Shown here: positions 1,549 to 53,479 of the stretch, one piece after another
Layout: every line of letters begins with the position of its first letter
How positions within the stretch are numbered: the first letter of the stretch is position 1
Source: an uncultured Anaerolineae bacterium
GTDB lineage: Bacteria > Chloroflexota > Anaerolineae > CG2-30-64-16
Direction: 5' to 3'
Assembly: GCA_937124585.1 (NCBI GenBank)
Contig: CAKZKT010000051.1
Coordinates: forward strand, 16,398 to 80,397
DNA length: 64,000 bases
The notes under the pieces: generated by a model
Database searches by the model: none
What the model was told of the DNA's origin: nothing
Seen by the model: only the letters and a program-made list of their open reading frames with translations
Translations under genes and position numbers: made by a program

Positions 1549-2567
<1,019 letters not shown>

Positions 2568-2571
<4 letters not shown>

Positions 2572-3551
2572 GATATCCGCTCCGAGAAGAGATGGCAGGC
2601 AACCTGATGTTTGGGCGCGACCTCTTGCAGGCGCGGCACCTCGACAGCGCAGCGCTCGAACGCCGCCGGGCAGCGCGGATGGAAAGCGCACCCCGGTGGC
2701 GGGTTGAGCAGGGTGGGCGGCAGGCCGGGAATGGCCTGCAGCGGCTTCTTTTCTTTGGTGGACGGCACCGACGCGATGAGCAAGCGGGTGTATGGATGCA
2801 AAGGCTGCTCGAAGATGGTGATGGCGTCCGCGATCTCGGCGATGCGGCCGGCGTACATCACCGCCAGCCGGTCAACGAGCTGGGCCTGCAGGCCCATATC
2901 GTGCCCGATGACGATCAGGGAGGTGCCCAGCCGCTCCTGCACCTCCATGAGGGTCTGGATGACGACGCGTTGGACGACAACGTCCAGCGCGCTGGTCAGC
3001 TCGTCGGCGATCACCAGCTTCGGGTTGAGGGCGATGGCCATGGCGATGCAGACCCGCTGTTTCATGCCGCCGCTGAGCTCATGCGGATACATGGTGGTGA
3101 CGCGGCGGGGCAGCCCGACCATGTTCAGCAGCTTGTGCACGCGCTCGGCGAGCTCGGCCGGCGACGGCCGGCCTTCGTGACAGATGATGACATCTTCGAT
3201 CTGTTCGCGAATGCGCATGACCGGGTTGAGCGAGTTCATGGCGCCCTGCGGAATCAGCGAGAGGTCGCGCCAGCGCAATGTGCGGAGCTCATCCGGTTTC
3301 AGCGTCAACAGGTCCCGACCTTCGAGCCGGACTTCGCCGGTCTCGATGCGGCCGGGGGGCTTGATCAGCCGCAGCAGGGCCATGGCCGTTGTGGATTTGC
3401 CGCAACCCGATTCGCCGACCAGGCCGAAGCGCTCCCCTTTGTATACGTCAAAACTGACATGTTCTACTGCTTTGATGGGCCCCCGCGGCGTGTGATAGTG
3501 CACCACCAGGTCGCGCACCGTCAGCACCGGTTCGGCAGCCAACGCACCCAT
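2568..3551 (-). CDS. peptide ABC transporter ATP-binding protein (OppD/DppD-like)
   Basis: [35 protein letters not shown]...CAFHPRC. Confidence 0.85.
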
Positions 3552-3566
3552 GCAATTGCCTCCGTT

Positions 3567-4397
3567 TTATGCCCGCACGACGAGCCGTGGATTCATCACC
3601 TCATCCAGACCCAGGTGGATCAAATACAGCGACAGAAACAGCGCGATGAGGGCAAACACGGGCGCCATCCACCACCACCAGAGGTTCTGCAGGATCGCGC
3701 CGTAGCCCAGCGCCCAGTAAATCATCATGCCGAGGGTGATGTCGTTCTGCGGCCCCAGGCCGAGGAGCGACAGCCCGGCTTCGGCCAGGATGGCCGCGAT
3801 GAAGGCGTTGACGAAGTTGGCCCCCAGCCATTGGAACATGTTCGGCATCAGCTCGCGGAAGATGATCTCCAGGCCCGACATGCCCGAAAGCCGGCTGAGT
3901 TGGACAAATGCGCGTTCTTTCAGGCTCAGCACCTGTCCCCGCACCTGTCGCGCCGGCGATGCCCAGGCAAACGCGCCGATGATGAGCGCAACCGCCGGCA
4001 ACGCCACTCCCCGCATCAGGGACGCGATCAGGATCAGGAAGAGGAGGGAGGGCACCGCCAGGAAAACGTCAATGAAGACCCGCAGCACGGCATCTATCAG
4101 CTTGCCGAAATAGCCGGCCGAGAAGCCGATGAGCGCGCCGAGAAAAGTCCCCAGCGCGGCGGCAATCAGGCCGACCAGCAGCGATTTGAGGATGGCTTCC
4201 ACGATCTGAATGGCCACGCTTCGCCCCAGTGCGTCGGTTCCGAGCAGTCCCCCCTCCTCGCCGGGCGGCAGGCGGGGCAAAAAGCTGCCGGTGCGCCGCA
4301 ATTCGGGCGGCGTCAACAGGACGCCGATGATCGAAACGATCACCATGAGCAAAAGGATAGAGAGGCCGATGAGGAGCTTCTTGTTGTGTGTGATCAC
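3567..4397 (-). CDS. ABC transporter permease (OppC/DppC-like)
   Basis: Multi-TM protein with the binding-protein-dependent permease EAA-like loop (LSLKERAFVQLSRLSG). Confidence 0.85.
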   Translation of the reverse strand: MITHNKKLLIGLSILLLMVIVSIIGVLLTPPELRRTGSFLPRLPPGEEGGLLGTDALGRSVAIQIVEAILKSLLVGLIAAALGTFLGALIGFSAGYFGKLIDAVLRVFIDVFLAVPSLLFLILIASLMRGVALPAVALIIGAFAWASPARQVRGQVLSLKERAFVQLSRLSGMSGLEIIFRELMPNMFQWLGANFVNAFIAAILAEAGLSLLGLGPQNDITLGMMIYWALGYGAILQNLWWWWMAPVFALIALFLSLYLIHLGLDEVMNPRLVVRA

Positions 4398-4464
4398 GGT
4401 CTTGTTCTGCCTTCAGTTGCTGTTTGAGGCGATCCGCATCTGCCTGCGCACTGTCGCAATGGCA

Positions 4465-5475
4465 TCAATCGGGCGCGGCCTGCCGGATCCGGGGATCAAT
4501 GAGCGGATAGGCAATGTCAATGATGAAGTTTGCCACCGCTACAGAGAGGATGATCAGGAGCACGCTGCCCTGGATCACCGGATAGTCGAGGCCTTTGATC
4601 GAATTGTAAATCAGCCAGCCGAGGCCCGGATAGCCGAAGATCACCTCGGTGATCAAGGCGCCGCCGACGACGTGGCCCAGCGACAGGGCCAGGCCCGTGG
4701 CCTGAGGCAGCAACGCGTTGCGAAACGCATAGCGCCAGAGAATGCGTCGTTCGGGCAGGCCTTTGGCTTCGGCCAGCAGGATGTAGTCTTCGCCTTTCAA
4801 GGCGCCGATCAGGCTGCGCATGCTGAGGAACCACCAGCCCAGCGATACCAGCACAATGCTGAGTGCGGGCAAAAAGGCGTGGTGGAGCACGTCGGCGATG
4901 AACGGCAGCGTCAGGGCCGGCGTCATGGTCACCGAATAGTTCCCGGACAGGGGGAAGATAGGCCAATGAAAAGCGAACAGAAAGATCAGCAGCAGCGCCA
5001 GGATGTAATAGGGGGTGGCGTACAGGATCAGCGCCAGCGGAACCAGGGCCTGAAGAAACCGCGACCCGCTGCCACGCCAGCCCACCACCGCGCCGGCCAA
5101 AGAGCCGATCACCCAACTCAACAGGGTGGTCACCGTCAAGAGGCCGATCGTCCAGGGAAGCGAATTGCGGAGCAGATCCGCAACCTCCGATGGGAAACTG
5201 GCGATCGAATAGCCCAGGTTGCCCTGCAGGAGTTGGGCCAGAAAGCTGATGTACTGCTCCCACAGGCTCTTGTCCAGGCCAAAGCGGCGGGTGTATTCGG
5301 CGACCAGCTCGGTGGCGTTCATGCTGCCGCCCATCTGCGCCAGGCTGAGAAAGACGGCGCCCAGGGGGTCGCCGGGGACCAGGCGTGGCACGATGAACAC
5401 CACGGTCACAGAGATGACGATGGTGGCAATGAAGAGCGCGAAGCGCTCCGCCAGATATTTCAGGTAAGCCGCCAT
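4465..5475 (-). CDS. ABC transporter permease (OppB/DppB-like)
   Basis: Hydrophobic multi-TM protein with the ILLAEAKGLPERRILWRYAFRNALLP permease signature. Confidence 0.85.
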   Translation of the reverse strand: MAAYLKYLAERFALFIATIVISVTVVFIVPRLVPGDPLGAVFLSLAQMGGSMNATELVAEYTRRFGLDKSLWEQYISFLAQLLQGNLGYSIASFPSEVADLLRNSLPWTIGLLTVTTLLSWVIGSLAGAVVGWRGSGSRFLQALVPLALILYATPYYILALLLIFLFAFHWPIFPLSGNYSVTMTPALTLPFIADVLHHAFLPALSIVLVSLGWWFLSMRSLIGALKGEDYILLAEAKGLPERRILWRYAFRNALLPQATGLALSLGHVVGGALITEVIFGYPGLGWLIYNSIKGLDYPVIQGSVLLIILSVAVANFIIDIAYPLIDPRIRQAAPD

Positions 5476-5560
5476 GAGTCGGTTCCTTCGAGGCAGGAGA
5501 AATGGCCCTGGCTGTGCACGGCCTGCGCACAGCCAGGGCCGGAACGGATCGCAGCAGGCG

Positions 5561-7496
5561 TTACTTCACGCCCGTCGGCTGGAGGCCGCCCACCCACTTG
5601 CCGGTGGTGGGGGACTGATAGCCGGTGATGACCAGGTTAAACGTGGCCCACCAGCTGACCGGCATGTTCCACGGATCCTCGGCCGAGGGGAAGCCCTTCC
5701 AGTAGGTATAGTTGAAGGGCACCAGGGCCGGGGCCTGGACGACCGGCACCACCGGCAGCTGCTCGAACCAGATGGCCATCGCCTTCTTGTACTGCTCCTT
5801 GACCTTCTCGACCTCGGTCGGCGGGGTCTTGCCCATCTCATCTACGATGGCATCGAACTCCGCGTTCTTGAAGCGGAAGGAGTTGCGCTCGTACCAGGGC
5901 GCGGGCTCGCCCAGGGGCACGTAGTTGGCGCCATGGAAGAGCCACAGGTTATCGTAGATGTAGCCGGGGCAGAACGAATGCAGCTTGAGGTCGTACTGCC
6001 CGCGCAGCAGGGCATCGGCCAGCGGGCTGCCGGTCATGGACTGGATCTTGACACCGATGCCGGCGGCGCGCAGCTGATCGGCCAGCACCGCGGACACCTT
6101 CATCTCCTCGCCCGAGTTGCTGTCCACCACATAGATCAGCTCCAGCTTCTTGCCGTCGGCGGTGGTCCAGTCGTTGCCGACCTTCTTGAGGCCGGCGGCC
6201 GCCAGGAGCTCGGCCGCTTTCTTGGTGTCGGTCGCATCGGCAGGATACTTCGCACGCAGGTCCTGGATCGCGTCGAAGTAGGGCTTCAGGCCATCGTAGA
6301 AGGGCCACACGCCCCAGGTCGGGGTGGTCGTTCCCTCATACGCCAGGTTGACGATGGCCTTGCGGTCAATCAGGTAGGAAATCGCCCAGCGCACTTCCTT
6401 TTGATCCAGCGGCGGCTTGGCGTTCTGCACCATCAGCGCCCGCGGGCAGGGATCCAGCCAGGCATAGGGCGGATCTTTGGTCCACGCGCGCAGGTTCGGA
6501 TTGCGCCGCGCGACCTCCTTGAAGGAACCGAGCGAGAGCTTTCCGATGAAGGGGGTATCAATTTCGTTGGCGGCCAGGGCCAGCGCGATGTTCGTGTCGT
6601 CGCCGATGTACTGGAAGTTGATGGTCTTGGGGGCCGGCTTGACGCCGAAGACCTTCGTCCCCCACCAGTCATCGCGTCGCTCATAGACGAACGCGGTCTC
6701 GGTGGCGCGCACGAGCTTGTACGGCCCGGTGCCAACAGGCTGCGAGTTCTTGAAGGTCAGCGGGTCCTGGCCTTCCCAGATGTGCTTCGGCAGGATGGTG
6801 ATGCCGCCCCAGATGCCCACTGCCGGGAATGCCTCGCGGATGAGATGGAAGCGCGGGTTGGGCTTTGTGAGCTCGAACTTGACGGTGGTATCGTCCACTT
6901 TCGTGGCGGCCTTCACCCAGGTGTTCGCCTCGGCCGCCCAGGTCATGCCTGGGTTCTTCTTCAGCAGCTCATAGGTGAAGACGACGTCATCGGCCGTGAA
7001 CGGCTTGCCGTCGCTCCAGGTGACGCCCTTCCGCAGGTTGACGGTGATGCTCGTGAAATCGGCGTTGTACTCGTATTTCTCCGCCAGCCAGGGGATGTAC
7101 TCGCCGGTCTGCAGGTTGTTGTAGAAGAAGTACTCGTAGATGACCTGATGGATGCCGGTTCCAGAGCGGCTGACACCCGGCGCGTAGATGTTCAGGTTGG
7201 TGGGATCGGCCACCCGGCCACCGAGCGCGACGTTGAGGGTCTCCGCGCGCGCCAATCGTTCCGGGCTGATCGGCGCGGGCGTCGGGGTCACGACCTTCTC
7301 GACGATCTTCTCGACCGGCTTTTCGACGACCTTTTCGACGACTTTCTCGACCGGTTTCTCGACGACCTTCTCGACGACCTTCTCGACCGGCTTTTCGACG
7401 ACCTTTCTCGATGACCTGTGGCGTGGGTTGTGCACAGGCCACGAGGACACTCATGATCACGCTCAGAACGAGCACGATCCACAGTTTGGTTTTCAT
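5561..7496 (-). CDS. family-5 (peptide/nickel) substrate-binding lipoprotein with an N-terminal (V/P)VEK tandem-repeat linker; reading frame interrupted by an apparent +1 insertion near 7402
   Basis: A Shine-Dalgarno AAGGAGGAGG precedes ATG 7496, which encodes signal peptide MKTKLWIVLVLSVIMSVLVAC (lipobox LVAC) then AQPTPQVIEK. The (VVEK/PVEK)n repeat and the SBP_bac_5-like body (5561-7450) lie in the +1 frame. Confidence 0.7.
7293..7413 (-). repeat. 12-nt tandem coding repeat (about 10 units, GTCGTCGAGAAG / CCGGTCGAGAAA variants) encoding (V/P)VEK
   Basis: Direct inspection of the sequence. Confidence 0.8.
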
Positions 7497-7515
7497 ACCT
7501 CCTCCTTGAAGTGAA

Positions 7516-7884
7516 ATGGCGTTTTTCACGCAGACCAAACTACAGTCGAACTATTGCCGAACACCAGATGCCGCCGAACGCAGAGGGACGATCGCGGTTT
7601 ACCCTGACCGGATGACCACCTCCTTTCAATTTCAAAGCAGAAACAGGGAAGAGAATGAAACCACGCAAGTGCGCTGTCGAATGTGTGGTTTTATTTGGAC
7701 AATATTGACAATAGTTAGACAGCGACGTTTGTGATTGTATGCTGTGTGCGGTTTCCTGTCAAGTTTTGTGTAAGTCGGCCGCCTGACGGGATCGCAGCGA
7801 GCTTCGCGGCCGCATCGACACGGCCTTTGTGTTCATTCCAGGCGATCGGGTATAATGTCCATCAGCTTCTGACGAGGTTGGTCC
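7516..7884. promoter_or_regulatory. Divergent intergenic control region between the peptide-ABC operon (minus strand) and the PEGA lipoprotein gene (plus strand)
   Basis: A relatively AT-rich island contains the direct repeat TTGGACAATATTGACAATAGTTAGACA (two GACAATA/TTGACA units) and CCTGTCAAGTTTTGTGTAAG. No exact sites are assigned. Confidence 0.3.
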
Positions 7885-9996
7885 ATGCAAAAGCAAACGG
7901 TGAAACGGCTATCCTGGTTGGCTGTGCTGTGCTTGGTGGCGCTGGCGACGGCCTGCACGTTCCCCTCGACACCCCCCAGCGCACCCGACCGGCTGCCGGC
8001 GCGGACCGGCGGTGTCACGCGATTGATCGTGGCGCCCAATCCGGACGGCGCGCAGGTGGCCGTGGACGGTGTCGTGCGCGGCAGCTCGCCGCTGACGTTG
8101 ACCCTGACGGCCGGCGATCACCTGATCGCGCTGAGCGCAGCCGGCTACGCGCCCTTCTCGGAGACGATCACCCTCGAAGCCGGCCTGGAGGCGACCTACG
8201 CGCCTGATCTGGAGGACATCGAGCCACCGACCGTCACATTGGAGAGCGAGCAGCCAGAGGCTCCCTGGTCGGGCCAGGTGCAGGTGCGCGCGGCAGCCCG
8301 CGACAACGCCGGCGTGGTAGACCTGGAGCTGGCGCTGGCCGAACGGACGCTGATGGTCACCGATGGCGAAGCGATCGTTTTCGCGCTCGCGCCGGCCACG
8401 CTGACCGATGTGCTGCCCGGTCGCACCTACACATTGACCGCTACTGCGACCGACGCTGCCGGCAACATCGGGCAGGCCTTCCTCCCCATCCTCATCGGGC
8501 CAGAGCAGGCCGCCGCCTCTGCGACGCCCACCCCGCTGCCCGCTGCGACGCCGACCGACAGCGCCACCCCGGCGCCGGCCCCGCCGACGGCCAGCCCCAC
8601 CGCGCCATCGCCGACGCCCTCGCCCCGGCCAACCCCCTCGCCGACCCGCCCGCCCGCGGTGACCTTCCGCGTGACCCAGGTCACCATCCCGACCTACGGC
8701 TATCGGCCGTTTCTGCGCTCTGTCACCGATCCGACGATGGGAGACTACGAGGTGTTGACGCTGGATCGGGCCGCCTACGAGGCGTCCGGTCCCAGGCCGG
8801 CGCCGGTCAACTACACGCTGCTCGTCCTGGAGAACCGCTATCTGCGCCTCAGCATCCTGCCGGACCTCGGCGGCCGCATCTACGAGGTGATCTTTAAGCC
8901 GACCGGCCATAACGAGCTGTATCGCAACCCGGTGATCAAGCCGACCGGCTGGGGGCCGCCCAGTCCGCCCTATCCGGCGGGCGCCAACTGGTGGCTGGCC
9001 GCCGGCGGCATCGAGTGGTGCTTCCCGGTGGAAGAGCACGGTTATGACTGGGGCAAAGAGTGGGGCTATAACTCGACGCGGCTGCCCGACGGCGGCGTGA
9101 CGGTCAGCCTCTTCACCGGCGACTACCGGCGGCCGTACGTCATGGTCAATGTGACGCTGCCCCCCGAAGCCGCCTACTTCACCGTGCAGCCCACCATCAT
9201 CAACCCGACTGCGGCGCCTGCGCGCGTGAAATGGTGGGCGAACGCCATGCTGGCGCCCGGCTCGGCCAACGCGCCCGGCCCGGAACTGCGCTTCATCTTC
9301 CCGGTCAGCGAGATGACCGTTCACAGCACCGGCGATCCGTCGCTGCCGGGGCCAGGGCAGCCGCTGGCCTGGCCGGTCCACGCAGGCCGCGATCTGAGCC
9401 GCCTGGGCAACTGGGGACAGTATCTCGGCTTTTTCGCGCGGCCCGCCGCGACGGGCGACTACATGGGCGTCTACGATCCGACGGTCGAGGAAGGGATGCT
9501 GCGCGTCTACCCCAGCAGTGTGGCGCGCGGAGCCAAAGGCTTCGCAATGGGCTGGAGCCAGCCGATCGGGCCCGAAGCGTACACCGATGACGGCTCCGGC
9601 TACGTCGAGCTGCACGGCGGCCTGGCGCCGACCTTCGACGACTGGCATCAACTGCCGCCGGCGGCCAGCATCAGCTGGACCGAGACGTGGTATCCGGTGG
9701 CCGACATCGGCGGCGTGACCTATGCTTCGGCGACCGCCGCGTTGCATCTGACGCCGGGCCAGGGCGGCCTGCGGGTGGCCCTCTTCCCGGTGAGGCCGGT
9801 GCGAGGCGAAGTGCGGATCGCCCTGCCGGATGCGGCGCCGATCGCGAAACCGGCTGACATTAGCCCGGCGCTGCCGTTCGACGAGGTGATCGCCCTGCCC
9901 GCGACCGTGCCGGCGCAGGGCGAGGTGACCGTGACCCTGCTCGACGCGCAGGGGAGGGCTGTTTTCGAGTATCGGGGGCCGGCCCGGCTGCGCTGA
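7885..9996 (+). CDS. Lipoprotein with a PEGA domain, Pro/Thr-rich linker and a large C-terminal domain of unknown function
   Basis: Signal peptide plus lipobox LATAC. PEGA-like RLIVAPNPDGAQVAVDGVVRGSSPLTLTLTAGDHLIALSAAGY. Linker PTPLPAATPTDSATPAPAPPTASPTAPSPTPSPRPTPSPT. Confidence 0.75.
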   Translation: MQKQTVKRLSWLAVLCLVALATACTFPSTPPSAPDRLPARTGGVTRLIVAPNPDGAQVAVDGVVRGSSPLTLTLTAGDHLIALSAAGYAPFSETITLEAGLEATYAPDLEDIEPPTVTLESEQPEAPWSGQVQVRAAARDNAGVVDLELALAERTLMVTDGEAIVFALAPATLTDVLPGRTYTLTATATDAAGNIGQAFLPILIGPEQAAASATPTPLPAATPTDSATPAPAPPTASPTAPSPTPSPRPTPSPTRPPAVTFRVTQVTIPTYGYRPFLRSVTDPTMGDYEVLTLDRAAYEASGPRPAPVNYTLLVLENRYLRLSILPDLGGRIYEVIFKPTGHNELYRNPVIKPTGWGPPSPPYPAGANWWLAAGGIEWCFPVEEHGYDWGKEWGYNSTRLPDGGVTVSLFTGDYRRPYVMVNVTLPPEAAYFTVQPTIINPTAAPARVKWWANAMLAPGSANAPGPELRFIFPVSEMTVHSTGDPSLPGPGQPLAWPVHAGRDLSRLGNWGQYLGFFARPAATGDYMGVYDPTVEEGMLRVYPSSVARGAKGFAMGWSQPIGPEAYTDDGSGYVELHGGLAPTFDDWHQLPPAASISWTETWYPVADIGGVTYASATAALHLTPGQGGLRVALFPVRPVRGEVRIALPDAAPIAKPADISPALPFDEVIALPATVPAQGEVTVTLLDAQGRAVFEYRGPARLR

Positions 9997-12665: not shown

Positions 12666-12717
12666 CCTGTAAACTTGCAGAACTCGCGTAAACAGACCTT
12701 TGAGCCAGGAGGAGAAC

Positions 12718-15700
12718 ATGATCATTCGCGGCAAACTGATCGCGGAAACGCCGATCTATCGAGGCAATGCTCGCAAGACACTCTTCACCCGTGACAGCGA
12801 TGGCACCCAGCGGCTGGTCTCGCTTGCGGGTGAGATCTCGGGAACGGCCCAGGCGCTGATGGACGCTTTCATCGGTCAGTCCCGCGATGGTCGGAACATG
12901 GGGCTATTGAATCGCGCCTGGCGCCGGCTCTACGGTGACCCGTTGCCCGATGGCCTGATCACGCGCGTCGAATGTCGGCTCCCGGAAGCAATGTACACGC
13001 AGGATCGCTTTTTCGACCTGCGCATGGGCCTGAAGTTGGACGAGGACCGTTGGGCGGCCGAGGCGAATGCCAACTACAAGATGGAGACCGTCTTCCGCCA
13101 TACCGGTTTCGACTTCAGCATGATGGTCAACGATGCCGTGCTGGAGCGCGGGGAAAACCGGGTCCGGCTCTACGCCCTGCTGGAGGAGATGGCGGCTGGT
13201 CGGTTCTGGTTTGGCGCCGGGAAGAGCAAAGGGCTGGGCCGGCTGCGGCTGGAAGCCGATCTGAGGAGCCTCACGCCCGCCGCGCCCGCTTTCCGTCCCG
13301 AAGTCAACCATTTGAAGATCGTGCTCCGCTTCAACGCCGATAACCCGGTGCTGGTCGGCTGGAATTGGGGCAAGGTAGATCCGGCCGTGCCGGCCTTCGC
13401 TGCCATCGAGGGCCGGTTGCTCATCGCGGCCATGCGCGACATCCCCGATCCGATCCGCCAGCGGCTCGAGCTCGTCATCGGCGGGCCCATCCTCAGCCCG
13501 GAAGACTGGAAACGCCGGCTGGCCGAGTATCTGCCGCGCGCCATCGCGCTCTGGCTTCAGGAGCGATCGAGCAGCCAGTCTGAAGTGTGGATTCTGCACG
13601 AAAACGCGCTGGCCAGGCTGGCCAAAGGCAAATACCCGCTGTCGCAGAAAGCGCTCGACGCGGTCAAGCCGCTCTGCGAGCAGCCATTTCCCGATGCCGC
13701 AGCCGCAGAAGCGGCCCTCAGGGAGCGCATCGGCAACCAGGCCAAACGCGTCCTGGAGATCATGGAACGGCAGCAGCAGGCCGGCCACCAACTTGACATG
13801 GCCGCCTGGCACGAGGTGAGCGATAGCCTGGGCCTGGATGCCACGCCGGTCGAGACGCTGGCGGCGCAGCTGGACGATGAAACGGCCCTCACCCAGACCC
13901 TCGCCGAAGCGTGTCGGCCGGTCATGGCGCGGCTCTATCAGCAGGTAGACCAGCAGGTGGATCTCCTGCGCAGCGACGCCTGGGTGGATGCCGAGATCGC
14001 CAATCGAGAGGTACATCTCAAGATCAAACAGATGCTGCTGGAGGGCAAGATCAGCGAGGCGCAATGGATGAACCGCAATCAGCCGCCCGCAGGGATCAGC
14101 CCGGCGGCCTGGCGCAGTTTCCTGGAAGAACATAGCCGGGTGCGCTATCAGCACATCATCCATCCGGCGAACCTGCGCAAGAGCATCACCAACGACCGCA
14201 ACTTCATCGCCTTCCTGCAGAGCTACCGGGCGAAGGCGCGCCAGGAACTTTCGCAGCCGTACCATGTGGACTTCCGCAGCGGCGGCCCGTTCAATCGCGA
14301 TGTTGCACGCAAATACGGCAAGCCCTACGACACCATGTTCATGCGCATGTTGACCTGGAGCCCGGCCGCGCGCGAGGGCGCGTGGGAGATCTATATCCCC
14401 GGCAGCACCATCAAGGGCGCGTTTCGCAAGCGCGCCTCGCAGGTGCTGAAGACGCTCTGGGGCGAATCGCCGCGCGTGACCGAGATTTTGGATTATCTGT
14501 TCGGCCGCCAGGGACAGCGCGGGGCCATCTACTTCTCCGATGCCTATCTGACCGATCCCACGCAGCCCGAGGAGGTCTGGTGTTCGATGGACGGCGTGCG
14601 CATGGATCCGGCGACGGCTCGCCCTGTGGAGACTGCCAAGCACGATTACCTGTTCGCCTATGGCGATCAGCTTAACTTCCAGCTGCAACTGGAGTTGCAA
14701 GACCTCACCGAGCGCGATCGGCCCGCGCTGGCCGTCCTGATCAACCTGCTGAAAGATTTCCAGCAGGGCGACATCGTCCTGGGCGGCGAGAAGACCGTCG
14801 GGTTCGGCTGGGTGAAGGCCCGCGTCAGCGAGATCACCTGGCTGACGGCCGATCCGGCCAACAAGCTGTTGGCCGATATCCTGCCCGAACGGCCCTTGAC
14901 CCGTGTCGGGCCCTGGCATCAGCTGACGTTGCGCGACGAAGAGGCGGCCGAGGTAATGTGGCGCGCGCCACTGCCCGCGGCCACCCGGGTCGAGGTCCGG
15001 CCGCCACGTGCTCGGGAAGGCTTCATCTCGCACCGGGCCTTCGGCGGCTACTCCGGCATATTGGCCGTGGAGGTCGAAGTGTTGACCCCTCTCCATGTTC
15101 GGGAGAGCGGCGAGCCATCGCGGCGCGCGGTCCTGGCCGATGGCAACGTGAACGGCTGGGACTGCTTCTCGTTCGCGCCGGCCGAGGCTGCTCTGCGGCC
15201 AGATGCCCGGCTCTACGCGCTGCCCAGCCGCAGCCTGAAGGGGTTGCTGCGCCACATCTACGCGGTCGCCAGCGACGCGAAGGGAGAGAGCCCGGCCCTG
15301 GATCGTCTGAACCCGGCCGACAGCCTGTTCGGATGGGTGGGTGCCGGCCCGAACCAGGCCATCATGGGGCGGCTGGCGTTTGGCTTTGCGCCGTTTGACG
15401 AGACGCCGGAGCTGGCCTGGTTCAAAGTGCCCTACCCCTACGGCGGCTGGATCTGCGAGAACGGCGTCTGGCGCCAGAGTACGACCAAAACGGTGCCGAT
15501 GTTCCAGATAGACAAGACCTGGCGGCTCTTCTTCCACGCGCCGCTCGCGCCGATCGTGAAGCGCCTGGAAGATTTCACGCCCGATACCGTGCAGGCCAGC
15601 TATACACGCGCGATCTTGCCGGGCGCAAAGGCGCGCTTCGACATTCGTTTCTGGAATCTGGAACAGGAAGAGCTGCAGCGCCTCATCTGGTGCATCGAGC

Positions 15701-15933
15701 TGGAGGAGGGCCTGGCGCACAAGTTGGGCCATCACCGCTATGTCGGCTTCGGCAGCGTGCGCCTGCGTATCCTGCCCGAGAGCGTGCTGTGGGACTGGAC
15801 GAAGCGCTACACCGATCAGGATGAGGGACGCCTGCCGCTGCGCGTTGCAGAGTGGTTCGAGCCCAAAGTGGTGGCGCACCGCGCGGCGCTGCTGAAGGCG
15901 CTTGATGCGCGCGTGCTGTCCGGCAATCGCTGA
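12718..15933 (+). CDS. Giant multi-RAMP fusion protein: three Cas7-like RAMP domains plus a ~300-aa alpha-helical insert (candidate single-subunit type III-like effector)
   Basis: Domain 1 (aa 1-185): beta1 MIIRGKLIAETPIYRG, glycine-rich loop WFGAGKSKGLGRLRLE (nt ~13210-13254). Domain 2 (aa ~540-715): IPGSTIKGAFRKRASQ (nt ~14394-14441), LFGRQGQRGAIYFSDAYL, glycine-rich loop GGEKTVGFGWVKA (~14785-14823). Domain 3 (aa ~785-1050): ILAVEVEVLTPLHV, LPSRSLKGLLRH (~15222-15257), LFGWVGAGPNQAIMGRLAFGFAPF, glycine-rich loop GHHRYVGFGSVRLRI. The start is ATG 12718 rather than the ORF-track TTG 12700. Confidence 0.85.
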   Translation: MIIRGKLIAETPIYRGNARKTLFTRDSDGTQRLVSLAGEISGTAQALMDAFIGQSRDGRNMGLLNRAWRRLYGDPLPDGLITRVECRLPEAMYTQDRFFDLRMGLKLDEDRWAAEANANYKMETVFRHTGFDFSMMVNDAVLERGENRVRLYALLEEMAAGRFWFGAGKSKGLGRLRLEADLRSLTPAAPAFRPEVNHLKIVLRFNADNPVLVGWNWGKVDPAVPAFAAIEGRLLIAAMRDIPDPIRQRLELVIGGPILSPEDWKRRLAEYLPRAIALWLQERSSSQSEVWILHENALARLAKGKYPLSQKALDAVKPLCEQPFPDAAAAEAALRERIGNQAKRVLEIMERQQQAGHQLDMAAWHEVSDSLGLDATPVETLAAQLDDETALTQTLAEACRPVMARLYQQVDQQVDLLRSDAWVDAEIANREVHLKIKQMLLEGKISEAQWMNRNQPPAGISPAAWRSFLEEHSRVRYQHIIHPANLRKSITNDRNFIAFLQSYRAKARQELSQPYHVDFRSGGPFNRDVARKYGKPYDTMFMRMLTWSPAAREGAWEIYIPGSTIKGAFRKRASQVLKTLWGESPRVTEILDYLFGRQGQRGAIYFSDAYLTDPTQPEEVWCSMDGVRMDPATARPVETAKHDYLFAYGDQLNFQLQLELQDLTERDRPALAVLINLLKDFQQGDIVLGGEKTVGFGWVKARVSEITWLTADPANKLLADILPERPLTRVGPWHQLTLRDEEAAEVMWRAPLPAATRVEVRPPRAREGFISHRAFGGYSGILAVEVEVLTPLHVRESGEPSRRAVLADGNVNGWDCFSFAPAEAALRPDARLYALPSRSLKGLLRHIYAVASDAKGESPALDRLNPADSLFGWVGAGPNQAIMGRLAFGFAPFDETPELAWFKVPYPYGGWICENGVWRQSTTKTVPMFQIDKTWRLFFHAPLAPIVKRLEDFTPDTVQASYTRAILPGAKARFDIRFWNLEQEELQRLIWCIELEEGLAHKLGHHRYVGFGSVRLRILPESVLWDWTKRYTDQDEGRLPLRVAEWFEPKVVAHRAALLKALDARVLSGNR

Positions 15934-15938
15934 CCGGT

Positions 15939-16811
15939 ATGCTGACACATTTCGACTGGCTACGGCGCAGCTGCAGCGGTCCGGAATTGTTGGCGACGCT
16001 CCAATACCTGGAGACCAACCCCGACCTGCCGACGGAAGACAGCGAGATGGGACCCCCGCCTTCGGCCGGGACGGCACCGTGCGCGCGCTGCTGGATCTAT
16101 CCGCGCGCGGTGGGACGCTATTGTGTCACCTGTCACGCCATCCTCGATCGTGCCTGGCGCCTGCGTGATGTCATCCCCCGGACGATCGTGATCTGGGGCT
16201 TCGTCAATCGCGTGCCCAAGGCCCGGCCGGGCCGCCAGAGCTTTGCCGGCAGCAACATCCTGGGGCAATACGTTCACGACGAGCGGCGTTTTCTGCTGAT
16301 GTTGCCGCACGACGAACTGAAGTCCTGGTTGCACGACCTGGCGCTCTACTACGGGATCGAGTTGAAGGGGCTTTTGCAGATCTTTCCGACCACGGGCGGC
16401 CGGGCGGCCCACATGGGCGACCTGCTGGTGCGCATGGTTCACCATGAAGCGCGCTTCCCGCCCGACAAGCTGCGCATTCGCTTCTTCGCCAAACTGGACC
16501 AGGTCTTCCATCCGCGACCGTACGAAAAGGAGGGCGTCCTGACCTTCGAGGCGGCCGAATTCCTGCGCACCCTGGAGCTGGCGACCGTCTTCCGCACTCT
16601 GCTGCGGCCGGATGAGCAGAAAACTCTTTACAAGCTGCTGCACATGACCGACTCCGCGCAGTCGCAGCTCTATTGGGGCCGCTTTTGGGGCCTGCTCAGC
16701 CAGGAGGCGCGCGATCTGATCAATGCCTGGGGCATCCGAACCTGGACGGAGTATCAGATCAGCCTGCTGTACGAGTTAGTGGACTATGTTGCCTTTGATC
16801 AGCCAGGTTAA
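15939..16811 (+). CDS. Hypothetical protein with an N-terminal CxxC...CxxC zinc-ribbon, translationally coupled to the RAMP gene
   Basis: CARCWIYPRAVGRYCVTCH. The ATG lies 5 nt after the upstream stop. No recognisable catalytic motifs. Confidence 0.6.
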   Translation: MLTHFDWLRRSCSGPELLATLQYLETNPDLPTEDSEMGPPPSAGTAPCARCWIYPRAVGRYCVTCHAILDRAWRLRDVIPRTIVIWGFVNRVPKARPGRQSFAGSNILGQYVHDERRFLLMLPHDELKSWLHDLALYYGIELKGLLQIFPTTGGRAAHMGDLLVRMVHHEARFPPDKLRIRFFAKLDQVFHPRPYEKEGVLTFEAAEFLRTLELATVFRTLLRPDEQKTLYKLLHMTDSAQSQLYWGRFWGLLSQEARDLINAWGIRTWTEYQISLLYELVDYVAFDQPG

Positions 16812-17826
16812 TCTGATCCGCTACCTGATCGTCTGGCGGGTGAACAGTTCGCTGGTGCACTTGTCGCGCTGTCTCGCCACCGATGTCTCGCGCACGCTCG
16901 CCATGTTGATCGCTGAGCGTCTGCCGACGCAGCAGGCGCGGCCGTGGCGCAAGACGGTGCAGCTTTGGAACAGCATCGCGGGCGATGCGGGCGCAGCCGA
17001 CGACGGCGAGGCGCAGGCGTCACCGAAACAACCGGCCTCTCAGGCGCCGGCCGATGAAGAGGCATTCTGGCCGGCCTGGCCGATCGAAGCAGTCGTGTGG
17101 CCATATCCCGGCAAGCGCATCTATGGCCAGGGCGAACCGCTCATATGGGAGCTGAAGCTGCTCGGCAACGACGCCGACCACGGCCTGTTTTTGGAGGTGC
17201 TGTTGCCGGCGATGGAAGCGGCGGCTGTCACCTCCGACGAGCGGTGGCATCGGTCGCGCACGTTGTGGGGGCGGTTCGACATTGACAGCATCTACGTCAG
17301 CCGCGGGCCGCGCTGGGAGCCGATTGCGCGCGGCGGTCGGCTCGACCTGAGCTGCCGCGTGACGCCCGTGCAGTGGGCCGAGGGGTTCGGCGAAGAGAGG
17401 CAGGAAAAGCCCCTACGGCGTCGCCTCATCTGGCTCACTCCGTTCGACCTGCCGGTGCTCGCGACGGCCGCCGACGCTCAGGACGCGACACGGCCGGCGC
17501 GACCGGCCGTGCCGGCGCTGGCCGACATCCTGGAGGCGCTGATGGAGCGGGTGGCCGGCCTGGCGGCGGGCAAACGCGCCCGCGCCGAACAGGCCTGGGC
17601 GCTCCTCTCGGCCGAAGAGCGGGCCGCCTTGCAGGAGGCTTGCGCAGCGGGCCCAGTGGTGAGGGCAGAATTGCAACGCGCCGATTGGGCCTGGCCCGGC
17701 CGCTGGATCGGCGAGCAGACCTTCCGCCAGATCGCGGCCGTCCTGTGGCCCTATTTGGATCTGGCCTCTATCGTGCACATCGGCCGCCACACCCATTTCG
17801 GCTGTGGCGCTTTCACGTTGGTCTAG
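16786..17826 (+). CDS. Cas6-like RAMP protein (putative endoribonuclease) with a C-terminal glycine-rich loop
   Basis: C-terminal ...VHIGRHTHFGCGAFTLV (nt ~17773-17823) fits the Cas6 G-phi-G-R-x-T-S-x-G-phi-G loop. N-terminal beta-alpha pattern IRYLIVWRVNSSLVHLSRCLATDVSRTLAMLIAERL. Overlaps the upstream gene by 26 nt. Confidence 0.6.
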   Translation: MLPLISQVNLIRYLIVWRVNSSLVHLSRCLATDVSRTLAMLIAERLPTQQARPWRKTVQLWNSIAGDAGAADDGEAQASPKQPASQAPADEEAFWPAWPIEAVVWPYPGKRIYGQGEPLIWELKLLGNDADHGLFLEVLLPAMEAAAVTSDERWHRSRTLWGRFDIDSIYVSRGPRWEPIARGGRLDLSCRVTPVQWAEGFGEERQEKPLRRRLIWLTPFDLPVLATAADAQDATRPARPAVPALADILEALMERVAGLAAGKRARAEQAWALLSAEERAALQEACAAGPVVRAELQRADWAWPGRWIGEQTFRQIAAVLWPYLDLASIVHIGRHTHFGCGAFTLV

Positions 17827-39992: not shown

Positions 39993-41147
39993 ATGTTACC
40001 GCCCACTGCAGATGTCGTCATCATCGGCGGCGGCGTGATGGGGGTCAGCACGGCCTATCATCTGGCCCGACGTGGCTGCCGAAGGGTCGTCCTGCTCGAA
40101 AAGCATCCTTTCCTGGGCGCCGAGGCCACCGGCAAATGCGCGGGCGGCATCCGCTATCAGTTCAGCACCGAGATTAACATCCGGCTGTCCCAGCTCAGCT
40201 TGCCGATGCTCGAACGCTTCGAGGCCGAAACCGGTCAGGCGATTGACCTGCGCTGGCCCGGTTATCTCTTCCTGCTGGACAACGCCGCCGACCTGGCGAT
40301 TTTTCGCCGCAACGTGGCGCTGCAGAACCGGCTCGGCGTCCCCTCGGTCATCCTCGCGGCCGATGACGTGCGAGCCCGCGTGCCGCTCCTGCGCCTGGAT
40401 GACATCGTCGGAGCCGCATGGCATGCCGGCGATGGCCTGGCCGATCCCAACGGCGTGGTCCAGGGCTATGCGGCCGCGGCGCGATGCTTGGACGCGGCCA
40501 TCTTCACCGGCGTCACGGTCACCGGCATCACCGTGCGCGCCGGTCGCATCAGGGGCGTGCAGACGAGTGCGGGCGACATCGCCGCGGCCGCCGTCGTGAA
40601 CGCCGCCGGGCCATGGGCCGGCCAGGTGGCCGCCCTGGCCGGCGTCGAACTGCCGATCACACCGCTGCGCCGCCAGATCGTCGTCACCGCGCCGCTGCCC
40701 GGCGTGCCCGACGACTTCCCCTTCGTCATTGACTTCAGCCGCAGCCTCTACTTTCACCGTGAGGGCCGCGGCATCCTGACCGGCCAGTCCAACCCGCACG
40801 AAACGCCCGGCTTCGACCAGTCGGTGGATCACGCCTGGACCGAACGACACCTGGAACAGGCGATGTGGCGTTTCCCGCTGTTGGAGCGGGCCGGCCTGCT
40901 GCGCCAATGGGCCGGGCTGTACGAGGTCACACCCGACGCGCACCCGGTCATTGACGGCCTGACCGACCCGGCGGGCTTCTACATCGTGGCCGGCTTTTCG
41001 GGCCACGGCTTCATGCACGGCCCGGCCGCCGGCCTGCTGATGGCCGAGCTGATCCTGGACGGCGCAGCGCATAGCCTGGACGTGCACCAGCTCCGGCTGA
41101 GCCGCTTCGCTGAAGGCGATTTGGTGCGCGAGCACAACGTGGTTTGA
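39993..41147 (+). CDS. FAD-dependent oxidoreductase (DAO family, sarcosine/glycine oxidase-like)
   Basis: VVIIGGGVMGVSTAYHLA...EATGKCAGGIR...AGFSGHGFM. Confidence 0.75.
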   Translation: MLPPTADVVIIGGGVMGVSTAYHLARRGCRRVVLLEKHPFLGAEATGKCAGGIRYQFSTEINIRLSQLSLPMLERFEAETGQAIDLRWPGYLFLLDNAADLAIFRRNVALQNRLGVPSVILAADDVRARVPLLRLDDIVGAAWHAGDGLADPNGVVQGYAAAARCLDAAIFTGVTVTGITVRAGRIRGVQTSAGDIAAAAVVNAAGPWAGQVAALAGVELPITPLRRQIVVTAPLPGVPDDFPFVIDFSRSLYFHREGRGILTGQSNPHETPGFDQSVDHAWTERHLEQAMWRFPLLERAGLLRQWAGLYEVTPDAHPVIDGLTDPAGFYIVAGFSGHGFMHGPAAGLLMAELILDGAAHSLDVHQLRLSRFAEGDLVREHNVV

Positions 41148-41170
41148 CCGTCCATCGTTGCGAGGCAGCC

Positions 41171-41800
41171 ATGAGATTACTGCTTACCGGCTTCGGCCCG
41201 TTCGGCGATATCGTCTGCAATCCCGCGCAGCTCGTCGTCGAGGCGCTGGCGGCCGACGTGACTCTGTGGGAGCCGGACGGCCCACACCGGCTTATCTCGG
41301 TCATCCTGCCGGTCGAGTTCGGGGCGGCCGACGAACATATCCGCAACCTGATCGAGGCGCACCGGCCCGATGTCATCCTGATGTTGGGTGTGGCTGCCAA
41401 ACGCGACAGCATCGGCCTGGAACGGATCGCACTGAACCTGGACGATGCACCCGACCGGCCGGACAATGCCGGCTGCGCGCCGGACGGCATCCCGATCGCG
41501 GCCGAGGGGCCGCTGGCCCTGGCGGCTACCCTGCCGCTGCCGGCCTTGCGCGCCAGCCTGAACGCGGCAGGCTTTCCGGCCGTCATCTCCAACCATGCCG
41601 GCACCTATCTGTGCAACCACGTCTTCTACACCGCGCTGTGGACCGTCGAGCGGCTGGGCCTGCCGACTCGCTGCGGCTTCATCCACGTGCCGCTGCCGCG
41701 CGATCTTCAGCCCGCAGGCGCAGACGCGCGCGTCGCGCTGGCCGATCTGGTCGCCGCGATCCGCCACTGCATCGGCTATCTGAGCGAATGCCCGACATGA
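41171..41800 (+). CDS. pcp: Pyroglutamyl-peptidase I (peptidase C15)
   Basis: MRLLLTGFGPFG...NHAGTYLCNHVFY (catalytic Cys/His). Confidence 0.85.
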   Translation: MRLLLTGFGPFGDIVCNPAQLVVEALAADVTLWEPDGPHRLISVILPVEFGAADEHIRNLIEAHRPDVILMLGVAAKRDSIGLERIALNLDDAPDRPDNAGCAPDGIPIAAEGPLALAATLPLPALRASLNAAGFPAVISNHAGTYLCNHVFYTALWTVERLGLPTRCGFIHVPLPRDLQPAGADARVALADLVAAIRHCIGYLSECPT

Positions 41801-47989: not shown

Positions 47990-50191
47990 ATGATGTCCAC
48001 GAGCAAGAAGTTGACGAGGCGGCAGTTTCTGACCCTGGCCGGCGCTGCCACCGGAACAGCGGCGTTGGCCGCTTGTGCTCAGCCCACTCCCGCCCCGACG
48101 CCGGTGCCGCCCACACAGGCGCCGGCGGCTCCAGCCCCAGCAGCCACGCAGGCTCCCGCGCCGACGGCTGCTCCCGCACCGGCTGCCGTGCCGACCAAAG
48201 CCCCGGCGCCGACTGTGGCGCCAACCGCAGCCCCCAAGCTGGGCGAGTCGCTCATCGGCAAGCTCGAAGGCCCGGAGATCATCCGGGATACGGTAAAATA
48301 TCCCAAGAAGTTCGCCGAAGCGCCGATACTGGCCGAGATGGTCAAGGCCGGCAAGCTGCCGCCCGTCGAACAGCGTTTGCCCGAACCGACCGAAGTCATG
48401 GTCATCAAGCCGCTGAAGGAGATCGGCAAATACGGCGGCAACTGGCGCCGCGGCTTCACCGGCCCCGCCGACCACGAAAACGGCAACCGCATTGTGTCCA
48501 CCGAGAAGATCTTGTTCTGGGACTACACCGGCAACAAGATCGGTCCGGCCCTGTGCAAGGACTGGAAGCTCAGCGAGGACGGCAAGACGACCACCATCTA
48601 TCTGCGCAAGGGCGCCAAATGGTCGGATGGCACGCCGCTCACCGCCGACGACTTCATGTTCTGGTTCGAGGACATCTACTCGAACAAAGACCTGGTGCCC
48701 ACCCCGTTCCCCGAGATGCTGGCAAACGGCAAGCCGGGCGTGATGAAGAAGATAGACGACTTCACCGTTGCTTTCGAGTTCCCCGAGCCGAACTACCTGT
48801 TCCCCTACATCCTGGCAGGCAGCACGGCCATCGGCGCGGGCTTCGCCACGCGCGGCGCGTTCGGCACTTACGGCGGCGGCTACGCGCCCAAACACTACCT
48901 GAAGCAATTCCTGCCCAAGTATTCTTCGGAGAACGAGATCAACGCTAAGGCCAAGGCTGCCGGCTTCGATGACTGGAAGGCCTACTTCAAGAACCGCTAC
49001 AGCTGGGTGCTCAACCCCGACGTGCCGGTGATGACCCCGTGGCGGACGGTCAGCCCCATCAACACGCCTACCTGGGTGCTGGAGCGCAACCCCTACTACT
49101 GGGCGGTGGACACCGAGGGCAATCAGCTTCCCTACATTGACAAGATCACCATGACGCTGGCCGAAAACCTGCAGGTGCTCAACCTGCGCGCGGTGGCCGG
49201 CGAGTACGACATCCAGGAGCGCCACGTGTCGCTGGCCAACCTGCCCGTGCTCCTGGAGAACCAGCAGAAGGGCAACTACACCGTGCACCTCGACCCGGCG
49301 CTCAACGGCTCGGACGTGACGCTGCACATAGGCAACGCCTACAAAGCCGATCCGGAGATCGCCAAGTGGCTCAGGAACAAGGACTTCCGCCACGCGCTCT
49401 CGCTGGGGATTGACCGCGATCAGCTCAACGAGACGTTCTGGCTCGGCGTGGGCACGCCCGGCTCGACCGCACCTGCCGAGACCACCATCTACAGCCCAGG
49501 CCCTGAGTATCGCAAGAAGTGGTGCACGCTCGACATCAAACAGGCCAACGAGATCCTGGACAGGATCGGCCTCAGCAAGAAGGATGCCGAGGGCTTCCGC
49601 CTGCGCACCGATAACGGCCAGCGCTTGCGCCTGGAGATGATCACCGTGGGCGGGCAGTTCGTGCCCTACACGGCGGTCGGCGAGATGATCAAGCAACAGT
49701 GGAAGAAGATCGGCATTGACGTGGATGTCAAGGAGATGGAGCGCAACCTGGCGTTCGGCAAGACGGCCAACAACGAGCACCAGATCATCCTGTGGGCCAA
49801 CGATGGCTCGGAGATGTTGTTCCTCTTCCCGCGCCACGCGTTGCCGGTGGACCCGGTCGAATGCCACATGGGCATGGCATTTGCCAAGTGGTATGCCTCG
49901 GGCGGCACGCAGGGCGAGAAGCCGGACGATCCCGAGATGCTGCGCGCCTTTGATCTAATGCGTAAAGTCTCCTCGATGACGGAAGAGGAGCAGATCAAGA
50001 CCGGCAAGGAGCTGTGGAAGATCATCGTCGAGCAGCAGTGGAGCATCGGTACGGTCGGCCAGTCGCCCGCCTTCATGGGCGTGCGCGTGGTCAAGAACAA
50101 CATGGGCAACATCCCGGAGCGTCAGGTTAACGCCCAGCACTGCCGCACGCCGGGCAGCTCGTTGCCGCCGACGTTCTTCTTCAAGAGTTAA
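47990..50191 (+). CDS. Family-5 substrate-binding lipoprotein with a Tat signal and Pro/Ala/Thr-rich linker
   Basis: Twin-arginine TRRQFLTLAG, lipobox LAAC. RBS AAAGGAGG. Confidence 0.85.
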   Translation: MMSTSKKLTRRQFLTLAGAATGTAALAACAQPTPAPTPVPPTQAPAAPAPAATQAPAPTAAPAPAAVPTKAPAPTVAPTAAPKLGESLIGKLEGPEIIRDTVKYPKKFAEAPILAEMVKAGKLPPVEQRLPEPTEVMVIKPLKEIGKYGGNWRRGFTGPADHENGNRIVSTEKILFWDYTGNKIGPALCKDWKLSEDGKTTTIYLRKGAKWSDGTPLTADDFMFWFEDIYSNKDLVPTPFPEMLANGKPGVMKKIDDFTVAFEFPEPNYLFPYILAGSTAIGAGFATRGAFGTYGGGYAPKHYLKQFLPKYSSENEINAKAKAAGFDDWKAYFKNRYSWVLNPDVPVMTPWRTVSPINTPTWVLERNPYYWAVDTEGNQLPYIDKITMTLAENLQVLNLRAVAGEYDIQERHVSLANLPVLLENQQKGNYTVHLDPALNGSDVTLHIGNAYKADPEIAKWLRNKDFRHALSLGIDRDQLNETFWLGVGTPGSTAPAETTIYSPGPEYRKKWCTLDIKQANEILDRIGLSKKDAEGFRLRTDNGQRLRLEMITVGGQFVPYTAVGEMIKQQWKKIGIDVDVKEMERNLAFGKTANNEHQIILWANDGSEMLFLFPRHALPVDPVECHMGMAFAKWYASGGTQGEKPDDPEMLRAFDLMRKVSSMTEEEQIKTGKELWKIIVEQQWSIGTVGQSPAFMGVRVVKNNMGNIPERQVNAQHCRTPGSSLPPTFFFKS

Positions 50192-50262
50192 CCTCGCCCT
50201 GCCGTTCCCTCTTCCTCCCCACGCCGGGGAGGAAGAGGTCGGGGGGAGAGGCAGGAGGCCCG

Positions 50263-51252
50263 ATGCTTGCCTACATCCTGCGCCGCCTGATCCTGGCGCT
50301 GATCACCGTGATTGCGATCAGCATTCTGTCGTTCGTCATCATTCAGTTGCCGCCCGGCGACTTCATCACCTCCTACATCGCCTCGATGTCGGCGGGCGGC
50401 GGTACGGTCTCGGAGGCCGAGGTCGAGGCGCTGCGCGAACAGTACGGGCTGGACCAGCCGATCACCGTTCAATACCTGAAATGGGTGAGCCAGATCGTGC
50501 AGGGCAACTTCGGCATGGCATTGGAATGGAACCGACCCGTGAAGGATGTCATCGGCGATCGCCTGACGCTGACGGTCATCATTTCGTTGGCGGCCGTGAT
50601 CTTCACCTGGGCGGTGGCGCTGCCCATCGGCATCTATTCGGCCGTCAAGCGTTATTCCATCGGCGACTACATCTTCACATTCATCGGTTTCATCGGCCTG
50701 GCCATCCCCGGCTTCATGCTGGCATTGATCGTCCTCTACGTGGGTTTTCGTTATTTCAATGCCAACGTGGGCGGCCTCTTTTCGCCAGAATATGCGGAAG
50801 CGCCGTGGAGCTGGGCCAAATTCCAGGACCTGCTGGCGCATCTGCCGATCCCGGCGGTTGTGCTCGGCCTTTCCGGCACGGCCCAGATGATCCGCATCAT
50901 GCGTTCCAATCTGCTCGACGAGCTGCGGAAGCCCTATGTGATGACGGCACGCGCCCGTGGTCTCACCGAGATGCGCGTGATCCTGAAATACCCGGTACGC
51001 GTCGCCATGAATCCTTTCATCAGCACCATCGGCTACCTGCTGCCCTACATCGTCTCCGGCAGCATTATCGTCTCCCTGGTGCTCAGCCTGCCCACCGTCG
51101 GCCCGTTGCTGCTGAAGGCGTTGATCGCCCAGGACATGTTCCTCGCCGGCACCATCATCCTGCTGCTCGGCGTAATGACGGTGATCGGCACCTTTATTTC
51201 CGACCTGCTGCTGATGTGGGTTGACCCGCGCATCCGTCTGGAGAGGCGCTAA
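50263..51252 (+). CDS. ABC permease (DppB/OppB-like)
   Basis: Permease signature ...MTARARGLTEMRVILKYPVRVAMNP. Confidence 0.85.
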   Translation: MLAYILRRLILALITVIAISILSFVIIQLPPGDFITSYIASMSAGGGTVSEAEVEALREQYGLDQPITVQYLKWVSQIVQGNFGMALEWNRPVKDVIGDRLTLTVIISLAAVIFTWAVALPIGIYSAVKRYSIGDYIFTFIGFIGLAIPGFMLALIVLYVGFRYFNANVGGLFSPEYAEAPWSWAKFQDLLAHLPIPAVVLGLSGTAQMIRIMRSNLLDELRKPYVMTARARGLTEMRVILKYPVRVAMNPFISTIGYLLPYIVSGSIIVSLVLSLPTVGPLLLKALIAQDMFLAGTIILLLGVMTVIGTFISDLLLMWVDPRIRLERR

Positions 51253-52448: not shown

Positions 52449-52452
52449 GCCC

Positions 52453-53463: not shown

Positions 53464-53479
53464 CCAGGACGACGCCAAG

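Follow-up and report, generated by a model that had tools for sequence, protein, structure and literature searches.

Organization of the locus

The sequence analyzed here is a 64-kb stretch (64,000 nucleotides, hereafter the window) of contig CAKZKT010000051.1 from an uncultured bacterium of the Anaerolineae (Chloroflexota). On its minus strand, a substrate-binding protein (SBP) gene, two permease genes and two ATPase genes form a standard Opp/Dpp-type importer operon (1549-7496). The SBP gene codes for a lipoprotein and is interrupted by a frame break: one extra base separates the export signal from the binding body, inside the tandem-repeat linker that joins them (Table 1). Coordinates refer to the minus strand unless stated otherwise; frame A is the signal-peptide frame, and frame B is +1 relative to frame A.

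The export signal is complete. The ribosome-binding site (RBS) is a Shine-Dalgarno (SD) sequence, GGAGGAGG, that is followed by the ATG start codon, and the encoded peptide MKTKLWIVLVLSVIMSVLVAC consists of a basic n-region (MKTK), the h-region LWIVLVLSVIMSV and the lipobox L-V-A-C. It satisfies the lipoprotein pattern (positively charged n-region, hydrophobic h-region, [LVI][ASTVI][GAS]C), and lipidation is predicted. Frame A then continues through AQPTPQ and the first repeat unit, VIEK (7415-7404). The signal peptide and the mature domain are not in a single frame, as there is a +1 offset from 7403 onward. In frame B, nine units follow from 7402 to 7295 (9 x 12 nt) in the order VVEK PVEK VVEK VVEK PVEK VVEK VVEK PVEK IVEK, and after them come VVTPTPAP (VVTPTPAPISPER...) and a 570-amino-acid SBP_bac_5 body that ends at the stop at 5561. 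Frame A past the junction reads GRRKAGREGRR... (GRRKAGREGRREGRRETGRESRRKGRRK...) up to a stop at 6987, and its product has 169 amino acids from the ATG at 7496, or 183 if counted from the TTG at 7538. The original prediction had placed the RBS, signal peptide and lipobox in one frame up to ...QVIEK, and the (V/P)VEK repeats with the whole SBP body in the +1 frame. The minus-strand reading bears out this description.

Tandem Repeats Finder reported a single array at 7290-7417, with a score of 135 for period 12, a score of 205 for period 36 and 1% indels. Because one array with 1% indels is reported, the array spans the junction with exactly one indel. The VIEK unit stands in the correct register of the 36-nt super-unit (X-VVEK-PVEK), and both kinds of unit junction, ...AAG/GTC and ...AAA/GTC, are present in the array. 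Five copies of the two-unit motif are present in the window, all of them in the linker, and none was found in 100 shuffles. The window junction GAGAAAGGTC can be derived from GAGAAGGTC by adding an A or from GAGAAAGTC by adding a G, and the window alone does not decide between the two. Because the sister species described below reads GAGAAGGTC, and an extra G needs one more synonymous change, the extra base would most simply be an A of the run at 7404-7406. The original prediction was thus right about one extra base, but the identity that it gave, a G, is not the one favored by the sister species.

Table 1. Features of the frameshifted SBP gene and its operon
Feature	Coordinates	Strand	Basis or remark
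Promoter-like site TTGACA-17-TACAAT	7734..7762	(-)	11/12 consensus positions; ~238 nt upstream of the start codon; consensus match only
Shine-Dalgarno sequence GGAGGAGG	7498..7505	(-)	sequence reading; kept in the sister species
Start codon ATG	7496-7494	(-)	3' of GGAGGAGG
Lipoprotein signal peptide MKTKLWIVLVLSVIMSVLVAC, lipobox LVAC, frame A	7434..7496	(-)	same peptide in the sister species
AQPTPQ and first repeat unit VIEK, frame A	7404..7433	(-)	Tandem Repeats Finder puts the VIEK unit in the array
Site of the one-base insertion, AAAGG vs AAGG in relatives	7402..7406	(-)	extra A of 7404-7406 or extra G of 7402-7403
Nine 12-nt units, frame B, linker between lipid anchor and binding domain	7295..7402	(-)	Tandem Repeats Finder and translation
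SBP_bac_5 body (Opp/Dpp/Nik-type, cluster C), frame B, open to the stop	5561..7294	(-)	PF00496 match
Frame-A product from ATG 7496, a 169-aa lipoprotein precursor with Arg-rich out-of-frame tail	6987..7496	(-)	translation
16-bp GC-rich hairpin GGCCCTGGCTGTGC...GCACAGCCAGGGCC, then ATTTCTCC	5504..5540	(-)	between the SBP stop and the first permease gene
BPD_transp_1 permease 1	4465-5475	(-)	intact; directly downstream of the SBP
BPD_transp_1 permease 2	3567-4397	(-)	intact
ABC_tran/oligo_HPY ATPase 1	2568-3551	(-)	intact
ABC_tran/oligo_HPY ATPase 2	1549-2571	(-)	intact

The same junction in other assemblies

The junction GAGAAAGGTCGTC is identical in five other public contigs (L081, L082, L083, L087, and L088), which represent a near-clonal population. 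An exact-protein look-up of the adjoining permease found the locus in ENA ERZ27245459 (k141_100251), JGI 3300010288 (Ga0116210_1000079) and JGI 3300025104 (Ga0209721_1000790), and these three contigs carry the same junction and match the window at 100% identity throughout their 11,475-bp overlap with it. The junction is also identical in DAINQL010000009.1, a 92-kb contig of NCBI GCA_036742915.1 that differs from the window by one single-nucleotide polymorphism (SNP) in 17,450 bp, and the fifth concordant sequence is an NCBI contig of 126.5 kb. The first four of these contigs are 26-92 kb long, and the set comes from different assemblers, including MEGAHIT-style k141 output, two JGI assemblies and a third-party NCBI metagenome-assembled genome (MAG). 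Because the same junction stands in five other contigs, one of them with a differing SNP, these sequences indicate that an artefact of one assembly is very unlikely.

Protein records point in the same direction. At 90% identity, the truncated product falls into a cluster of six proteins, of which two belong to the sister species (632 amino acids) and four to this population (629, 629, 629, and 624 amino acids, one of the 629-residue proteins coming from GCA_036742915.1). All four population proteins start at internal GTGs and were therefore called on frameshifted DNA. In a collection of 15 billion proteins, the repaired 644-residue protein was absent by exact look-up, and no in-frame allele of the window species is on record. 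In addition, five other same-strand overlapping or adjacent pairs of open reading frames (ORFs) in the window all proved to be complete genes in a frame map based on G+C at third codon positions (GC3) combined with Pfam, and the same analysis of same-strand ORF pairs found no other broken genes in the 64 kb. Since all five pairs are complete, the window assembly is not generally indel-prone.

An error shared by all of these assemblies would be a different matter: the true genome would be in frame, and an extra base, owed to sequencing chemistry or to mis-assembly at the 12/36-nt repeat, would have been passed on through common reads. The site lies within a 128-nt tandem array, the gene is otherwise perfectly preserved, and contigs that are 100% identical or 1 SNP apart over 12-22 kb are compatible with a common read set. 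However, different assemblers and projects agree at the base level, the collapse or expansion of a repeat alters whole 12- or 36-nt units and not one base, a run of 2-3 nt is not an error-prone homopolymer in short reads, and no further broken genes turned up in the 64-kb window. Such an artefact is therefore considered unlikely. The sequencing error that the original prediction had listed first is likewise disfavored by the concordant assemblies, with reads and the independence of samples lying outside this evidence.

The metagenome-contig scan, with a pattern for in-frame and shifted junctions, returned only the sister species (L086) and an unrelated SBP (L085). The genome-contig scan for the window's own species gave best matches that were 72-73% identical, and these served for orthologue architecture only. 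A literature search for the sample and assembly accessions found no papers that mention them. Relatives of the Mfd protein stood at 100%, 90%, and 79-83% identity, with named matches only in Anaerolineae- or Caldilineae-like MAGs, and cluster names likewise led no further than an uncultured Chloroflexota lineage.

The sole SNP among five population contigs over 17-22 kb is at window position 6711 (L087 position 10740). It causes V247A and falls inside the broken gene. That the lone SNP is non-synonymous and located in this gene is suggestive, as a single event with a chance of about 0.11.

Comparison with the sister species and distant orthologues

A sister species with 87-88% nucleotide identity (95% in the SBP body) has a colinear operon, which is carried by FWPU01003365.1 (L086, 40.6 kb) and appears a second time on FWWL01044647.1 (L084). 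In this species a single frame encodes MKTKLWIVLVLSVIMSVLVACVQPTPQVIEKVVEKPVEKVVEKVVEKPVEKVVEKVVTPTPAP..., with the same signal peptide as in the window, and the junction reads GTC ATC GAG AAG GTC GTC GAA AAG, in frame. The signal-peptide region differs between the two species by 7 nucleotides and 1 amino-acid change, and the RBS is kept. Two other readings of the N-terminus were rejected by this comparison. A compensating second frameshift is contradicted by the match of frame A to the sister species through VIEK and of frame B from VVEK on. The internal GTG at 7450 was rejected as the true start because it has neither an RBS nor a signal peptide and because the signal peptide upstream of it is conserved, most of its differences from the sister species being synonymous.

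The orthologue comparison proposed in the original prediction was extended to 50 distant orthologues from Chloroflexota MAGs, with 54-76% identity over the best aligned segment. An in-frame signal peptide was found in 46/50 by a crude test, and an in-frame lipobox in 22/50. The four exceptions to the signal-peptide test comprise a contig-edge case (L021), a false negative of the test (L038), and two proteins with a short or unclear N-terminus (L019 and L053). In many orthologues, the lipobox is followed by variable-length linkers rich in V, E, K, and T, such as ...LTSCVVPTPEVIEKIVEKPVEKVVEKIVTPAPAP in L001 and ...ITACAPVAPATPQVVEKVVEKVVEKPVEVVVTPTP in L002. Together with the in-frame sister species, these comparisons indicate that the in-frame arrangement is the ancestral, normal state and that only the window's population carries the break.

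The repeat array has 10 units in the window and 7 in the sister species, a difference of 36 nt or one super-unit, which indicates that the tract changes length in frame-preserving steps. This bears on phase variation, in which slippage in the repeat tract would toggle the lipoprotein ON and OFF and the assemblies would have caught the OFF state. Surface lipoproteins are classic phase-variable targets, and the lesion does lie in a tandem repeat whose copy number differs between species. As in the contingency loci of Neisseria, Haemophilus, and Mycoplasma, a surface lipoprotein gene carries an internal tandem repeat with a frame break within it. In contrast to those loci, the repeat unit here is a multiple of three, so that gain or loss of 12-nt units or 36-nt super-units keeps the frame. 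The sole frame-changing tract is A3/G2; contingency-locus homopolymers that switch at useful rates are roughly 7 nt or longer, and the tract is far below that length. Moreover, no ON/OFF polymorphism was seen among the contigs, all five others being in the same state, and no in-frame allele has been recorded. A phase-variable switch, the last of the three explanations in the original prediction, thus found no support and appears highly improbable.

Two observations concern the relatives themselves. In L085 (Ga0209162_1000206), positions 1343-1386 belong to an unrelated family-5 SBP from another organism, and this stretch of its linker equals that of the sister species except for 1 of ~44 bases. 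The stretch encodes PTPQVIEKVVEKPVEKVV in frame, and outside it the locus shows no similarity to the window at the megablast level. L085 and the sister species may have come to share the linker module through recombination, or it may be convergent. On the 2.4-kb contig L084, residues ~533-632 of protein P0001, its C-terminal ~100 amino acids, are unlike its near-twin P0122 (FWPU01003365.1) and like the more distant orthologue P0011, which would make L084 either a chimeric contig or a record of recombination.

Selection and age of the frame break

Against the sister species, the rates of nonsynonymous (dN) and synonymous (dS) change in the SBP body were 0.022 and 0.384, respectively, giving a dN/dS of 0.058, which is indistinguishable from those of its intact operon neighbors (0.056 and 0.032 for the permeases, 0.067 and 0.100 for the ATPases). 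When the 22 amino-acid differences were polarized with six outgroups, 8 were derived in the window, 6 were derived in the sister species and 8 were ambiguous (binomial p = 0.79). Neither dN/dS against the sister species nor this relative-rate test gave a signal of relaxed selection on the SBP. Judged from these values, either the gene has been broken for only a very short part of the lineage's history, or it remains in use. That the break is very recent is the economical reading, because dN/dS equals that of the neighbors and amino-acid changes have not accumulated in excess on the window lineage. Recency is also preferred because diversity among the assemblies is near zero (1 SNP in 17-22 kb). 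The lesion is absent from close relatives and the remaining gene is without decay, as in a recent pseudogene.

Continued use would call for translational bypass of the break. With the ribosome paused at AAA-G and the rare codon GGT still unread in the A site, the P-site tRNA-Lys would slip +1 and exchange AAA for AAG, and some full-length lipoprotein would be made, as leaky rescue or through a newly born recoding site. The tRNA-Lys(UUU) can re-pair from AAA to AAG and is known as a shifty tRNA. Of the next codons in the zero frame, GGT accounts for 7% of its family in the window, CGT for 9%, and CGA for 5%, and the RBS, signal peptide, and body are all still intact. However, rare zero-frame codons arise automatically when a high-GC3 gene is read in the wrong frame, and the intactness is equally explained by recency. 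GGT is a minor Gly codon in the window (7% of Gly, 5.9 per 1000) and not an extreme one. Folding of the downstream RNA was no better than in shuffles (z = +0.6). Programmed +1 frameshifting in prfB (RF2) is similar in that a +1 shift is needed and a shift-prone Lys codon precedes rare codons. Unlike prfB, the window site lacks an in-frame stop, a very rare codon, a clear SD-like stimulator upstream and any autoregulatory logic, and the frameshift is not conserved, with the sister species and essentially all orthologues in frame. Bypass is consequently regarded as quite improbable. In a specific variant, tRNA-Lys would slip at GGT-CGT-CGA, a fraction of full-length protein would be made, and the allele would persist as a newly born recoding site with lowered output rather than as a dead gene; this is likewise quite improbable. 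As far as sequence comparison can tell, the conservation test for prfB-like recoding and both contingency-locus tests appear negative.

A probable young pseudogene and its consequences

Taken together, these results suggest that a genuine one-base insertion at the boundary between units 1 and 2 has probably made a young pseudogene in a near-clonal population. The locus is most likely a real but ordinary frameshift pseudogene of recent origin, with an error of assembly and a switch in regulation as the less likely readings. This agrees with the second of the possibilities in the original prediction, a recent inactivating mutation in an otherwise intact operon, which gains support from the five concordant contigs, the in-frame relatives and the lack of a decay signal. 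Several points weigh against this conclusion. The total lack of secondary damage would also fit a gene still expressed through bypass. The evidence consists of assembled contigs without raw reads, and some or all of the assemblies, identical or nearly so over 12-22 kb, are possibly re-assemblies of the same or related samples, the independence of their reads being not established. Finally, the metagenome scan missed the known frameshifted contigs, and it provides no allele counts across samples.

If the gene is a young pseudogene, the insertion would most simply be a change from AA to AAA in GAG-AAG-GTC. It plausibly arose by replication slippage or mis-templated repair between the ...AAG/GTC and ...AAA/GTC junctions. 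Ribosomes starting at the ATG at 7496 would translate the signal peptide, the lipobox, and VIEK, then run into out-of-frame rare Gly and Arg codons and stop at 6987, yielding an aberrant lipoprotein precursor. The binding domain would be made only from internal GTGs lacking an RBS and would remain in the cytoplasm. The transporter would then be left without its cognate receptor, and SBP function would be lost. In addition, about 1.4 kb of untranslated mRNA would lie ahead of the permease genes, which might cause a polar drop in their expression. The loss may have been neutral or selected.

Events of this kind are very well known, and the present one adds an instance without any new mechanism. 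As in other frameshift pseudogenes of ATP-binding cassette (ABC) importer SBPs, a 1-nt insertion parts the export signal from an intact domain, the partner genes are intact, and relatives are in frame. In contrast to the usual cases, the break here is extremely young, without secondary damage and with dN/dS as in the functional neighbors, and its position coincides exactly with the border between two repeat units in a low-complexity linker. The locus records gene loss caught almost at its onset in a near-clonal environmental member of the Chloroflexota, with an orphan permease and ATPase set left behind. For annotation, it should be described as a frameshifted lipoprotein-SBP pseudogene whose true start is 7496, in place of the signal-less cytoplasmic 'SBP' of 629 or 624 amino acids that several public pipelines called from an internal GTG. 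More generally, error, recent mutation, and switch can be told apart without reads when the concordance of assemblies is considered along with an in-frame sister species and selection statistics.

Identity of the gene and its ligand

With the extra base removed, the gene encodes a protein of 644 amino acids that matches Pfam SBP_bac_5 (PF00496) with E = 2.9e-70 and a score of 237.7 bits (gathering cut-off 32.4) over profile positions 1-351 of 368. The domain score, along with the adjoining Opp-type permeases and oligo_HPY ATPases, places it in this family. The protein resembles the Opp/Dpp/Nik-type lipoprotein SBPs of monoderm bacteria in its PF00496 domain, its two permeases and two oligo_HPY ATPases, and its lipobox followed by a flexible linker. 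It differs from them in that the window gene is broken and in that its structure matches are nearer to sugar binders than to DppA or NikA.

The closest solved structure to the SBP body was 4pfu, a Thermotoga mannoside binder (E = 1.4e-54). Other close structures included 1vr5, 2o7i, and 4jsd, which are oligosaccharide-binding 'Opp-family' proteins of Thermotoga, and 1zty, a chitin-oligosaccharide binder of Vibrio (E = 8e-39). The closest solved Thermotoga maritima proteins include binders of mannosides, cellobiose, and laminarin. DppA and NikA matched at ~1e-16, compared with 1e-54 to 1e-36 for the sugar binders. All NCBIfam equivalogs scored far under their cut-offs against the SBP. The original prediction of a peptide-binding lipoprotein is thus correct with respect to the SBP_bac_5 family, but the closest structures bind oligosaccharides, and the peptide ligand is unproven. 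'Peptide-binding' would here be a family label and not a finding, and the transporter may import sugars rather than peptides.

Other features of the operon and the window

The 5' leader of the SBP gene (7497-7762, minus strand) has diverged from the sister species except for its last ~130 nt. If the promoter-like site at 7762-7734 is real, the leader up to the ATG at 7496 would be ~238 nt long. An Rfam scan of the window found two tRNAs only and no family in this leader. The perfect-looking hairpin at 5504-5540 may act as an attenuator between the cistrons or stabilise the mRNA in such a way that SBP is made in excess over permease.

A second Opp-type operon is located at 47990-54499 on the plus strand. 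Its SBP of 733 amino acids has a twin-arginine-like TRRQFLTLAGA motif and the lipobox LAAC, and its long Pro/Ala/Thr linker differs from the solution that this genome uses in the frameshifted SBP. The SBP is followed by OppC_N/BPD_transp_1 permeases and oligo_HPY ATPases, and a pyroglutamyl peptidase gene lies near this operon at 41114-41800. Type III CRISPR-Cas genes at ~12673-17826 (plus strand), called from precomputed Pfam matches on identical contigs, include those for a 1071-residue RAMP-domain protein and a 290-residue protein, along with a weak Cas6 match. Divergent from the frameshifted SBP operon, at 7885-9996 on the plus strand, is a gene coding for a protein of 703 amino acids with PEGA and DUF5107 domains, which has its own lipoprotein-like signal (LATAC) and an internal linker rich in Pro, Thr, Ser, and Ala.

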